In this document: positions 49,940 to 64,000 of the stretch, in pieces
Layout: each line of letters begins with the position of its first letter
Position numbering within the stretch: the first letter of the stretch is position 1
Virus record (IMG/VR): IMGVR_UViG_3300035670_000096
DNA from: a virus
Direction: 5' to 3' (one strand)
Length of the DNA stretch: 64,000 nucleotides
Notes under the pieces: model-generated
What the model was told of the DNA's origin: nothing
Database searches by the model: none
Seen by the model: only the letters and a program-made list of their open reading frames with translations
Translations under genes and position numbers: made by a program

Positions 49940-50122
49940 TTACGCCAGTTTGGAGAACTCCTTCTGGGCTAGTTTCTTGGTTGCGCCTTTAGCTTCCCAG
50001 GACCGGGCATCAGCGAGAAGCCAACGCGCTATTGTTCTCTCGATTGCAGGAAGCCCGATAGTCCTAACCTTGTAGGCCGCTACCATCGAAAGGATGACGA
50101 AGCCGCCGATTACTACCTGCAT
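49940..50122 (-). CDS. 60-aa protein with N-terminal transmembrane helix
   Basis: MQVVIGGFVILSMVAAYKV.... TAATG overlap with the ParB-like gene stop. Confidence 0.5.
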   Translation of the reverse strand: MQVVIGGFVILSMVAAYKVRTIGLPAIERTIARWLLADARSWEAKGATKKLAQKEFSKLA

Positions 50123-51066
50123 TACTCCTTACCTCCCATGATAGCCTCAAGAGCCTCCACCGCTTCGCTGTCGTCATGAATACCGCCGCTCATGATAGCA
50201 AGCATGACCCCGGCCAGCTTCTGAAGTTCGTCACTGATTGCCGGAGAGCCGACCATGACATCGAAGAACGAATACATTTCGCCCCAGGTGCGCTTGTTAT
50301 TCTTGGGAGTGTCGGAGAGCTTGCGAATGATCTCCTTGACGGCACGCTTCTTCTTGGCCGGAGTGGTTTCCTCCGGCTGATCTGCTTCGTTCTTGGTGAT
50401 GGTGGTGGTGTCGGTGTTGTCGTCTTCGTTGTTATCGACCTCAGCGGGAGCCGGAGCCGTTACGACCGATTCAATCTCTTTCACCGCAACTTTCTGTTTG
50501 TCCGCGCTCATCTTGGCGATAGAGAGGGCATCGGTAAAGTTGATCTCGCCGCTGTGGACCTTCTGCTGGATGTTGTAGTCCAGGCTCAGGAGGCTCCGGT
50601 GCTGGCTCACCCATCCGCCCGTGCGCCCGAAGAAGCTGGCGATCTGGGAGTCCGTCTGCCCGTAGTTCTCGCTCATTCGCCGGATGGAGAGAGCATAGTC
50701 CATGTGAGAAAGGTTATTCCGGTGGGCGTTCTCGGCCAAGTTGCGAAAGAACACGTCGCGGTCGTTGCCGTCAAACACGACGACCTTAATCTTCATGCGC
50801 TGGTCTTCCTGGACGCCAGCGTTGATCCGTTTAATCGCTTCATAGCGGCCAAACCCGTAGGCCAGCCGAAGGGTGTTATTGGGCTTTTCGCGCACCGCGC
50901 CAACGGCCTCAAGCTGCCCGTACTGGCTGATGGACTGAACCAAGACGCCGATATCGGACTGGCTGAAGCGATTATTAGATGCGTGATCGACGGCGATATC
51001 GTCGATATCGACGAGGTATTCAGCACCGCGCTCGGGCTTAATGGTGCTCTGGAATTTCAAAGACAT
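50122..51066 (-). CDS. ParB/sulfiredoxin N-terminal-domain protein
   Basis: ParB-N box GQLEAVGAVRE...LRLAYGFGRYEAIKR, followed by an HTH-like middle region and an acidic Thr/Asp/Asn-rich linker. Confidence 0.65.
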   Translation of the reverse strand: MSLKFQSTIKPERGAEYLVDIDDIAVDHASNNRFSQSDIGVLVQSISQYGQLEAVGAVREKPNNTLRLAYGFGRYEAIKRINAGVQEDQRMKIKVVVFDGNDRDVFFRNLAENAHRNNLSHMDYALSIRRMSENYGQTDSQIASFFGRTGGWVSQHRSLLSLDYNIQQKVHSGEINFTDALSIAKMSADKQKVAVKEIESVVTAPAPAEVDNNEDDNTDTTTITKNEADQPEETTPAKKKRAVKEIIRKLSDTPKNNKRTWGEMYSFFDVMVGSPAISDELQKLAGVMLAIMSGGIHDDSEAVEALEAIMGGKE

Positions 51067-51149: not shown

Positions 51150-51479
51150 ATGAAAAGGATTACTCAAAAAGAGCAAATCATTGAATTGATGAAGGCTGGA
51201 CTCTCGCCTAAAGAGATAATCTCTACTGTTGGATGCCACTTCACTTATGGCTATAGAGTTATCGAGGAAGAAAAGCTACGCAGTGGGCTAGAGCCTGCCG
51301 GGAACCCAAAGCTAAAAAGCCTTGAGGCTAGGGTTAAGAACCTAGAGAAGATCGTCGCCTCTCTCGCCGCCATGAAACGGTTTGGAGGCTCCGGCGCTAC
51401 TTCTCCACAAGAGAGTCCAGAAGTTCGACTTCAGAGACTGCTCGCTGACAGTGAACGCCAATCGCAAACGCACGGATGA
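51150..51479 (+). CDS. small HTH DNA-binding protein (only rightward gene inside the leftward block)
   Basis: MKRITQKEQIIELMKAGLSPKEIISTVGCHFTYGYRVI is helix-turn-helix-like. GAGGAAG RBS. Divergent from the ParB-like gene. Confidence 0.55.
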   Translation: MKRITQKEQIIELMKAGLSPKEIISTVGCHFTYGYRVIEEEKLRSGLEPAGNPKLKSLEARVKNLEKIVASLAAMKRFGGSGATSPQESPEVRLQRLLADSERQSQTHG

Positions 51480-61038: not shown

Positions 61039-61113
61039 GGTTATTGCTCCTTTAATGATTCGGTTAATCCGATCATCGCAGCCCGCTATGCGCTAGCGAG
61101 CTGAGGGATAGGA
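61039..61113 (-). repeat. conserved ~80-nt intergenic element, copy A
   Basis: Shares TAATCCGATCAT (12 nt) and GATAGGACTA (10 nt) with copy B in the same order and orientation. Has an internal hairpin (CAGCTCGCTAGCGCATAGCGGGCTG on the - strand). Confidence 0.55.
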
Positions 61114-62113: not shown

Positions 62114-62194
62114 GCAATTCTCCCTTTATCGGCGCAATAATGCCGTCCCAATACCCTATCATGACGGGCGATAAGGCATTGAATGGAATCACTA

Positions 62195-62785: not shown

Positions 62786-62871
62786 TGTGCAATTCTCCCT
62801 TTATTGATTCTGTAATCCGATCATTCTAGCCTGCTATTCGCTAACAGGCTAACCTGATAGGACTAGCGGGA
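62786..62871 (-). repeat. conserved ~80-nt intergenic element, copy B
   Basis: See copy A. On the - strand it has the hairpin TAGCCTG-N10-CAGGCTA, followed by a possible TAGAAT -10 element. Confidence 0.55.
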
Positions 62872-63039
62872 TTAGATCTCCTCAATCCACAGCTCAGCGC
62901 CGCGCATGATCTCTAATTCGTCCTCTGCGTCCTCAAGCGAATAGCACGTTACAGGGTCCCATTCGCCCAGTGAGTCCGATACAACCCACTTGAATAGATC
63001 TTTTCCGTATTGGATCTCTGTAATGCTGTAGCGCTCCAT
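62872..63039 (-). CDS. 55-aa acidic protein (below the track cutoff)
   Basis: Read by hand: MERYSITEIQYGKDLFKWVVSDSLGEWDPVTCYSLEDAEDELEIMRGAELWIEEI*. AAGGAG lies 8 nt upstream. Confidence 0.5.
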   Translation of the reverse strand: MERYSITEIQYGKDLFKWVVSDSLGEWDPVTCYSLEDAEDELEIMRGAELWIEEI

Positions 63040-63072
63040 GGTTCGATGCTCCTTTAAGGTTGGTTGGTTGTA

Positions 63073-63114
63073 GCGGTAGACTAGTCAGACTAGTTAGGTG
63101 GACTAGTCTACCGC
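63073..63114. other. perfect 14-bp inverted repeat (hairpin or protein-binding palindrome)
   Basis: GCGGTAGACTAGTC (63073-63086) and GACTAGTCTACCGC (63101-63114). The loop holds a third GACTAGT. No U-tract on the transcribed (-) strand. Confidence 0.6.
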
Positions 63115-63124
63115 AAATGGATGA

Positions 63125-63340
63125 TCAGTCTAGGGCGATAATCCTACACTCGCCGTCCACCGTGATCGAATTGGGCAGGTGCCCTAGGGCGGCCGCAACA
63201 AACAGGCGGTTTTCTACGGTATCCCGCTTGTATCCATAGTCCTTTGCCGCTTCCATAGCCCCGTAGAACGTATCGCCAATGGACAGGGCCTCTGCCCAGG
63301 CGATGCCGCAAATGACGGCATTAACGTAACTATCTTTCAT
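63125..63340 (-). CDS. hypothetical protein (first gene of the leftward block)
   Basis: Trimmed to MKDSYVNAVICGIAW... with AAGGAG 8 nt upstream. Confidence 0.5.
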   Translation of the reverse strand: MKDSYVNAVICGIAWAEALSIGDTFYGAMEAAKDYGYKRDTVENRLFVAAALGHLPNSITVDGECRIIALD

Positions 63341-63362
63341 GTTCGTAACTCCTTTCTTCAGT

Positions 63363-63390
63363 AGAATACCACAGTGACAGGGGAAGTCAA
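63363..63390 (-). promoter_or_regulatory. candidate sigma70-type early promoter for the leftward block
   Basis: On the - strand: TTGACT (63390-63385), a 16-nt spacer ending in TGG, then TATTCT (63368-63363). This gives an extended -10-like TGgTATTCT about 22 nt upstream of the ATG at 63340. Confidence 0.45.
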
Positions 63391-63486
63391 GCTCTAATCG
63401 CAATTAGAAGTATTAAACCTTCTTAATGTTCCCCTAGCCTATCCTTATTATATATGGGACGTGCGGCGGCGGGGCGGCTCGACTTA

Positions 63487-63710
63487 GCTAGGGTGTACGG
63501 GCTAGGGTGTACGGGGTAGAGTGGACGGGGTAGAGCGTACGGGCTAGCTTGGACAGGCTAGGGTGTACCGGCTAGCTTGGACAGGGTAGGCGGTAAGGTG
63601 TAACTCGCACTAGATAGCTTGCACAGGGTAGCTTGGACAGGGTAGCTGGTACGAGATAGCTTGGACAGGGTAGAGTGGACAGGCTAGCTTGGACGGGGTA
63701 GCTTGGACAG
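63487..63710. repeat. 16 in-phase copies of a 14-bp tandem repeat (consensus GGTAGCTTGGACAG)
   Basis: Units read in register include GCTAGGGTGTACGG x2, GGTAGAGTGGACGG, GGTAGAGCGTACGG, GCTAGCTTGGACAG and GGTAGCTTGGACAG. Only one unit (63599-63612) is degenerate. Confidence 0.9.
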
Positions 63711-63736
63711 GCCGGCGGCCGGCGCTTAGGCGCAGA

Positions 63737-63772
63737 GGGTGGGGGTGGCCAGGGACGGGACGGGCATGGGGG
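63737..63772 (+). other. G-run cluster (potential G-quadruplex motif) followed by a G-poor CA-rich tract
   Basis: GGG, GGGGG, GGG, GGG, GGG and GGGGG runs lie within 36 nt. From about 63815 the + strand becomes nearly G-free (CCACAAACAACAACCACCAACCCAACCAAC...). Confidence 0.5.
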
Positions 63773-64000
63773 TGGCGGCCTCCACAACCATATTTTGAAT
63801 TTTTTTTTAGAAAAATGGCCACAAACAACAACCACCAACCCAACCAACTAACCCTCTCAACCACACATCTAGCAACCATTTAGAAAAACTACCCCAATAT
63901 TTCTAACCCATAAACCAAACTTATACCAGCCTCAATCCCCCCTAGCTACGGAAACGACACTTATTCATCCTTAGCGTAGAACCGTTATCTATCGACCTAT

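Follow-up and report, generated by a model that had tools for sequence, protein, structure and literature searches.

Tandem repeats are common in the non-coding DNA of phages. In T7, the short-repeat arrays SRL and SRR reportedly flank the terminal repeat, and at replication origins of the lambda ori, P1 oriR and iteron-plasmid kind the iterons are usually 17-22 bp long, are set at a pitch of approximately two helical turns and co-vary with the neighbouring initiator. The lambda tR1 site is a Rho-dependent terminator with a rut region. Contiguous-repeat centromeres that are bound by ribbon-helix-helix proteins and positioned just upstream of a promoter have been described for omega/parS of pSM19035 (PMC9499535) and for ParG/parH of TP228 (PMC3130281).

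The repeat array analyzed here lies near the end of a window of 64,000 nucleotides (the window being the whole stretch of DNA that was analyzed), which represents about 64 kb of a ~100-kb uncultured phage genome. Reading of the sequence and phasing reveal 16 units of 14 bp that run head-to-tail, in phase and with zero spacers, and TRF returns a period of 14 together with higher-order periods of 28, 42 and 56. The first-pass annotation had described sixteen contiguous in-phase repeats at this position, and both its coordinates and its consensus are right; two of its three counts of exactly duplicated units also stand, whereas the unit at 63627-63640 occurs twice (the second copy at 63697) rather than three times. 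Four columns of the unit are invariant in 16/16 copies (T3, A4, G9 and A11) and four are nearly so (G1, G5 and C12 in 15/16, G14 in 14/16), which amounts to about 18 bits of information; columns 2, 6, 7, 8, 10 and 13 are variable. The degenerate units 8 and 9 (63585-63612) agree with the consensus at 9/14 and 8/14 positions, respectively. The units fall into three linked haplotypes and 42-bp block duplications are present, as expected of amplification. Three units, or 42 bp, correspond to four helical turns, and the earlier remark that 14 bp is a non-integral number of turns is correct. Dyad symmetry relates the invariant T3/A4 and the G9/C12 positions, and direct reading shows a 12-bp near-palindrome in several units.

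Nine matches to the unit with two mismatches or fewer are present in the 64-kb window, every one within the array, and the four matches outside it each carry three mismatches, which is about chance level. These 13 matches compare with 5.2 expected, and 13 was reached in 0/100 shuffles. The in-phase core of the unit has zero matches among 2.9 million viral contigs. No ORF crosses the array, and TAG occurs in every plus-strand frame within three units. The minus-strand ORFs between 63341 and the window end are without conservation in the two relatives described below, and no conserved ORF was found within this ~660-bp stretch, in agreement with its earlier description as a non-coding region.

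The minus strand of the window encodes, between ~63.3 kb and 20.5 kb, functions of phage replication and nucleotide metabolism, among them a ribonucleotide reductase, a DnaB-type primase-helicase, Erf, amidoligase/GATase pairs and a ParB-HTH protein. A UvsX-like recombinase and giant proteins are encoded on the plus strand between 1 and 20 kb, and capsid or terminase genes are absent from the 64-kb window. A blastn search of 62800-64000 against cultured phages gave no match, and an exact 31-mer taken from the end of the window matched none of the viral contigs. The comparison set consists of two relatives from IMG/VR, the only two that could be found: G002 (97,490 bp), with an amidoligase 83% identical and a primase-helicase 93% identical to those of the window, and G001 (102,748 bp; CheckV completeness 100%), with a primase-helicase 83% identical. 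Both assemble as circles whose breakpoints lie away from the locus; the ends of G001 overlap imperfectly in the helicase region, and those of G002 join inside the ParB gene. At the contig ends of G001 (1-2100 and 100652-102748) the helicase region is present in two diverged versions that agree fully over the first 100 nt, and this overlap suggests circular assembly through a strain-variable, intein-bearing segment.

The map of G001 comprises two large divergent gene blocks. The leftward block is the minus-strand block of the window, and the rightward block contains, in order, two DNA methyltransferases and the endolysin, then the tail spike, large terminase, portal and major head protein; the distance from the divergence point to the large terminase is 20 kb. 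The array is located in the main divergent intergenic region, which separates the early/replication block from the methyltransferase-lysis-structural block. This region measures about 650-760 bp in the relatives and is cut by the window end at 64000; the DNA past that point was viewed in the relatives only.

Other routes to relatives were less productive. The 196-aa and 230-aa neighbour genes led to 14 loci that are non-syntenic because these genes are mobile, an 18-base pattern gave 120 chance matches and no relative in a metagenome scan, the pattern being too short, and the invariant 18-mer had eight matches in genome_contigs, all by chance. In two unrelated phages that carry the mobile 196-aa gene, L002 (7000-7320) and L001 (7400-7680), about 10 copies of a 7-9-bp motif (GGAACAC-type and TTCCA-type, respectively) occur in both orientations at a pitch of ~11 bp around an AT-rich promoter-like stretch, which looks like a real operator or iteron cluster.

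The anatomy of the region, obtained from a three-way alignment of the window, G002 and G001 together with BLAST, is given in Table 1.

Table 1. Features of the divergent intergenic region and its first gene, in window coordinates.
Feature	Position	Strand	Remarks
Conserved inverted repeat with three ACTAGT sites, between genes 1 and 2	63073-63115		One of several stem-loop-plus-RBS intergenic cassettes
First gene of the leftward block	63125-63340	-	71 aa, ATG at 63340, acidic, no Pfam match
Sigma70-type promoter-like site	63363-63390	-	TTGACT, 16-nt spacer, TATTCT, TG before -10
Conserved AT-rich spacer, slot to promoter	63391-63456		UP-element-like position
Variable slot (array plus short GC-rich ends)	63457-63723 (267 bp)		Sharply bounded by conserved flanks
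14-bp direct-repeat array, 16 units	63487-63710	G-rich on +, C-rich on - (early-gene sense)	Three linked unit haplotypes; units 8-9 degenerate
Conserved non-coding block	63724-63815		92% to G002, 78% to G001; G-runs on +
Canonical G4 motifs in the conserved block	Starts 63737-63752, last ends 63772	+	Main plus-strand G4 cluster of the window
A/T tract where strand skew flips	About 63788-63818		Composition
Window-private low-complexity insertion	63819-63906 (approximate bounds)	CA-rich on +, GT-rich on sense strand	Not in G001 or G002 (alignment)
Second conserved non-coding block	63909-63964		86% to G002, 89% to G001

Read along the early-gene sense strand, the order is the conserved block 63964-63909, the private GT-rich insertion, the A/T tract with the C-rich block 63815-63724, the slot, the AT-rich spacer, the promoter and the first gene. 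The flanks and the promoter are conserved in both relatives, at 78-92% where BLAST aligns. The block adjoining the slot (63724-63815) is conserved at or above the BLAST level across coding DNA, and the second block contains an 18-nt stretch that is invariant in all three phages. The private insertion includes a duplicated T-run/A-run motif, and G makes up only 5% of 63801-63900. At the early promoter, the -10 element and the spacing are kept in 3/3 phages, and the -35 element reads TTGACT in both the window and G001, but TTGCAA in G002. The end of the array is 97 bp upstream of this hexamer, close to the 100 bp or so first estimated. The gene that follows, a different one in each of the three phages, had been termed the first early gene; it is the first gene of the leftward block, and the term early is to be read as presumptive.

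Further features of the neighbourhood were recorded. In each intergenic cassette of the early block (minus strand; 63040-63124, 62786-62871, 62114-62194 and 61039-61113), a GC-rich stem-loop precedes a conserved A-rich stretch and an RBS; one pair of cassettes shares 79% identity, and two cassettes have conserved counterparts in G002 despite different flanking genes. The cassettes resemble the conserved regulatory cassettes of T4-type phages that are thought to promote gene shuffling. A search of Rfam found nothing in the region of the window or in those of the relatives, apart from one match to a miRNA family on the inverted repeat 63073-63114 (E = 0.07) that amounts to chance. The tetranucleotide CTAG occurs at 15 per kb in 63000-64000 and at 2.7 per kb in the rest of the window, which makes it about five times denser there; the count takes in three ACTAGT and three GCTAGC sites, and the divergent neighbour gene in the relatives encodes a DNA methyltransferase.

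Beyond the window end, direct reading of both relatives (L008 3392-3700 and L166 1700-1900, minus strand) identifies a second promoter-like site with an extended -10 (TTGACC, 15 nt, TG-n-TACTAA) that lies ~450-600 bp upstream of the early promoter and points in the same direction. Past this site, ~170 nt of highly conserved non-coding DNA contain three hairpins and four AGTAC(T/C) palindromes. This stretch holds a 45-codon ORF in G002 that is not open in G001, five tandem TTGACA-like hexamers stand just upstream of it in G002, and it could be a small RNA or an operator region.

A comparison of the three phages reveals that the slot between the conserved flanks has been replaced. The equivalent slot is 186 bp long in G002 and 175 bp long in G001, and its repeats are unrelated to the 14-mer, which was found in neither genome: in the G002 slot a 9-bp unit is present three to five times and a 14-bp motif twice, and in the G001 slot a 16-bp motif is present about three times and a 9-bp unit twice. 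The slots differ in sequence, unit length and regularity, the repeats of the relatives being less regular, and those of each genome are confined to its own slot. Apart from GC-rich 4-5-mers, the three slots have no k-mer motif in common, and they share no more 6-mers than shuffles do. Position, size (175-267 bp) and composition polarity are what the slots have in common. A C-rich region of the unrelated phage L005 seemed similar, but the resemblance was loose and probably compositional, and it was set aside. Head-to-tail units within the 10-60 bp range, higher-order duplications and turnover between close relatives, the marks of a minisatellite or VNTR, are all found here, and the array looks like a lineage-specific, fast-evolving tandem expansion (minisatellite) in a compositionally constrained spacer.

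The shared polarity is pronounced. On the early-sense strand, the slots of the window, G002 and G001 contain 44%, 36% and 53% C and 19%, 26% and 27% G, respectively, giving C/G ratios of 2.3, 1.4 and 2.0 over 175-267 nt. The plus-strand skew is +0.3 to +0.5 across 63501-63800 and reaches -0.74 past the A/T tract. By a G4Hunter-type score, the slot and the adjoining conserved block form the strongest G-run asymmetry of the 64-kb window, and in G001 they stand ~7 SD above the mean of the 102.7-kb genome; G4Hunter windows scoring at least 1.5 are 14- to 68-fold enriched in slot plus block in all three phages. The only canonical plus-strand G4 motifs of the window start at 63491 and at 63737-63752; the second cluster is kept in G002, and none with loops of 7 nt or less is present in G001.

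The sense-strand RNA shows no excess folding relative to shuffles, with z = -0.3 for the array and z = -0.2, +0.7 and +3.2 for the slots of the window, G002 and G001. The plus-strand RNA of the array appears strongly folded against dinucleotide shuffles (z = -7.2), an excess that shrinks to p = 0.03 when the same column permutation is applied to every unit and the periodicity is kept. This excess is mostly that of one self-complementary unit amplified 16 times, and it was looked for and found absent in the slots of the relatives; a structured RNA on either strand was rejected accordingly. A similar correction applies to the columns of the unit. Naive permutation of the mismatched cells indicates position-specific constraint at P < 5e-5, and recounting the changes as 26 events on the minimum-spanning tree of the 13 distinct units yields P of about 0.05. 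These values hint, not strongly, at some sequence-level constraint in the array, tied to the dyad-symmetric TA and G...C positions.

The complete replacement of the slot between conserved flanks in syntenic phages, together with the composition shared by the slots, points, as the preferred reading, to a slot that would act through its composition in the transcriptional insulation of the early promoter, with the array as the lineage-specific minisatellite that fills it. A probability of roughly 0.4 is assigned to this reading. The slot would work through composition and length, the 14-mer itself being read by no protein, and the repeats would be by-products of replication slippage and block duplication under a constraint on composition. 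Transcripts from the upstream promoter-like site, which is a sequence match seen in the relatives only, past the window end, would cross the slot as untranslated, C-rich, unstructured RNA. Such RNA has the signature of a Rho-loading (rut) site, for which at least about 80 nt of C-rich, G-poor and unstructured sense strand is present here, and the transcripts would thus end before they disturb the early promoter and the early genes. The G-run-rich, G4-prone template strand may add to the block.

Several observations weigh against insulation by composition. The shared C-richness could be inherited passively, with the neighbouring C-rich conserved block supplying the seeds that slippage amplifies, and the four never-varying positions, the non-uniformity at P of about 0.05 and the self-complementarity at p = 0.03 hint at constraint on sequence. 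Additionally, G001 is without a canonical G4 motif (loops of 7 nt or less), and the comparison extends to only two relatives. The proposal of the first-pass annotation that the array is a regulatory or insulator element is compatible with the composition evidence and comes near the preferred reading, although a sequence-specific site is not indicated.

An array without function, that is, a neutral minisatellite in tolerant non-coding DNA whose composition is simply whatever was amplified, is a rather unlikely account. It would fit the full replacement of the slot between flanks that are 78-92% identical and the haplotypes and block duplications typical of slippage, and the second private low-complexity insertion nearby shows that this lineage tolerates such expansions. 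However, a length of 175-267 bp and an equally oriented, extreme strand polarity have been retained in all three lineages, and this polarity is the strongest one in the window and in G001; phage genomes are compact, and the neighbouring block, which is similar in composition, shows 92% and 78% conservation.

Similarly doubtful is an operator, iteron or centromere-like site for a lineage-specific DNA-binding protein that polymerizes along its sites, with successive sites rotated by 120 degrees and every three units completing four helical turns. The contiguous in-phase units with four invariant and four near-invariant positions, the dyad-symmetric T3/A4 and G9/C12 with the 12-bp near-palindromes, the promoter just downstream (as at omega/parS and ParG/parH) and the lineage-specific character of the neighbouring genes are consistent with such a binder. 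A candidate reader is lacking, however: no DNA-binding domain was found in the small early proteins, and the window-private ones are acidic or membrane-like. The ParB and HTH proteins are conserved and the repeats are not, the slots of the relatives hold only 2-5 irregular repeats and would make a poor cooperative platform, the unit occurs nowhere else in the window, and the constraint becomes marginal once the haplotype structure is allowed for. As in centromeres of Types Ib, II and III (omega-parS, ParG-parH, ParR-parC and TubR-tubC), contiguous short direct repeats lie upstream of a promoter, but an adjacent operon with a partition NTPase of the ParA or TubZ kind and a small binding protein was not found.

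A packaging or terminus-associated repeat, with the neighbouring conserved block as part of a terminal repeat or pac site, has a slim chance of being correct. Much as at the left end of T7, a repeat array is followed by AT-rich DNA, a strong host-type promoter and the first gene; the adjacent non-coding blocks are 78-92% conserved as a terminase recognition site would be, and the arrangement of G-runs, T-runs and G-poor DNA at 63737-63900 is unusual. Against a terminus at this point, both relatives are circles that are broken elsewhere, in the helicase gene (G001) and in the ParB gene (G002), and their assemblies run through the region. The TerL gene is 20 kb from the slot, whose neighbours encode methyltransferases and the endolysin, and the terminase is conserved whereas the array is not. 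Arrays on both sides that are conserved among close relatives, as in a T7-type end, are not found: there is one regular array, on one side only, the other side carries the private CA-rich insertion, and the unit is in neither G001 nor G002. The nearest cultured TerL proteins are 23-27% identical, too distant for a packaging type to be inferred.

An iteron-type replication origin located between the diverging gene blocks, for which the AT-rich neighbour would serve as unwinding element, is very improbable. The array does sit at the strand-switch point of the genome, and its direct repeats adjoin a 65-bp AT-rich stretch (63391-63456) and the A/T tract (~63788-63818), so that an AT-rich element beside the repeats is present. 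However, the repeats are not conserved together with an initiator, the replication genes being shared by phages with unrelated slots; the contiguous 14-bp pitch is atypical of iterons, which are spaced by about two helical turns; and the local skew flips opposite to the expectation for an origin. A better candidate is formed by the palindromic repeats (family D12) inside an initiator-like gene at about 36.0-36.2 kb. The equivalent position in G001 (93989-94071) carries the only other strong tandem array of that genome, 3.9 copies of a 21-bp unit, and the pair is a conserved, origin-like feature.

Binding by the ParB-like (50122-51066) or HTH (51150-51479) protein of the phage, as first proposed, can hardly be upheld even though both are encoded in the same gene block (Pfam E = 6e-8 for the HTH domain of ParB, a weak HTH_23 match for the HTH protein), because proteins as similar as those of the window and G002 (ParB 93% identical with an identical HTH segment; HTH protein 94% identical with 3 differences in its N-terminal HTH stretch) cannot each read slot repeats that are unrelated and share no motif. 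The site thus fails to co-vary with the DNA-reading domain of ParB as a parS site would. The G001 orthologues of the ParB and HTH proteins are 67% and 47% identical. No ParA partner above threshold was detected in G001 and G002, where only sub-threshold P-loop matches of 13 bits occur, and a search for tubulin/TubZ in the same genomes found none.

If the slot does act through its composition in insulating the early promoter, it would be a clear natural case of a phage control element under selection for strand bias, length and position but not for sequence, and would have implications for the insulation of early transcription units in large uncultured phages. For annotation, the locus is a caution that a regular repeat array need not be a protein-binding site. 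The present work removes a parS-like misannotation for the ParB-like protein and maps the main divergent control region of this phage group.

A comparison with the described systems reveals partial likenesses in each case. Like the array, SRL and SRR of T7 are formed by many short direct repeats in non-coding, strand-asymmetric, low-complexity DNA just upstream of strong host-type early promoters and the first early gene. They are, however, heptamers with variable spacers that bracket the terminal repeat and have been retained in close relatives, whereas the present array consists of contiguous 14-mers on one side with a unit not found in close relatives. The iteron origins (lambda ori, P1 oriR and iteron plasmids) share the direct repeats beside AT-rich DNA, but the array differs in its 14-bp pitch, in having no adjacent initiator and in the presence of a separate origin-like site. 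The omega/parS and ParG/parH sites (PMC9499535, PMC3130281) also have unspaced short repeats in 7-10 or more copies directly upstream of a promoter, with a protein that is expected to spiral round the DNA; their units are only 7-8 bp, and they adjoin genes for the binding protein and a ParA ATPase, neither of which was found here or in G001.

Like the array, bacterial and viral VNTRs in promoter-upstream DNA are built of head-to-tail 10-60 bp units, contain higher-order block duplications and are replaced completely between close relatives, although a plain VNTR need not keep its size and extreme strand composition across lineages as the slot does. Rho-utilization regions such as lambda tR1 resemble the slot in presenting a long untranslated, C-rich, G-poor and unstructured sense strand in a phage early leader, but known rut sites are not regular tandem repeats. 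It is conceivable, if rather doubtful, that the locus represents a composition-encoded element of fixed position and polarity that insulates or times the first promoter (acting by Rho loading, a G-quadruplex or R-loops) and whose sequence is free to slip, giving each lineage its own repeat, or else that the 14-mer is the site of a lineage-specific filament-forming protein. The array itself belongs to a known kind, the tandem-repeat arrays of phage control regions.
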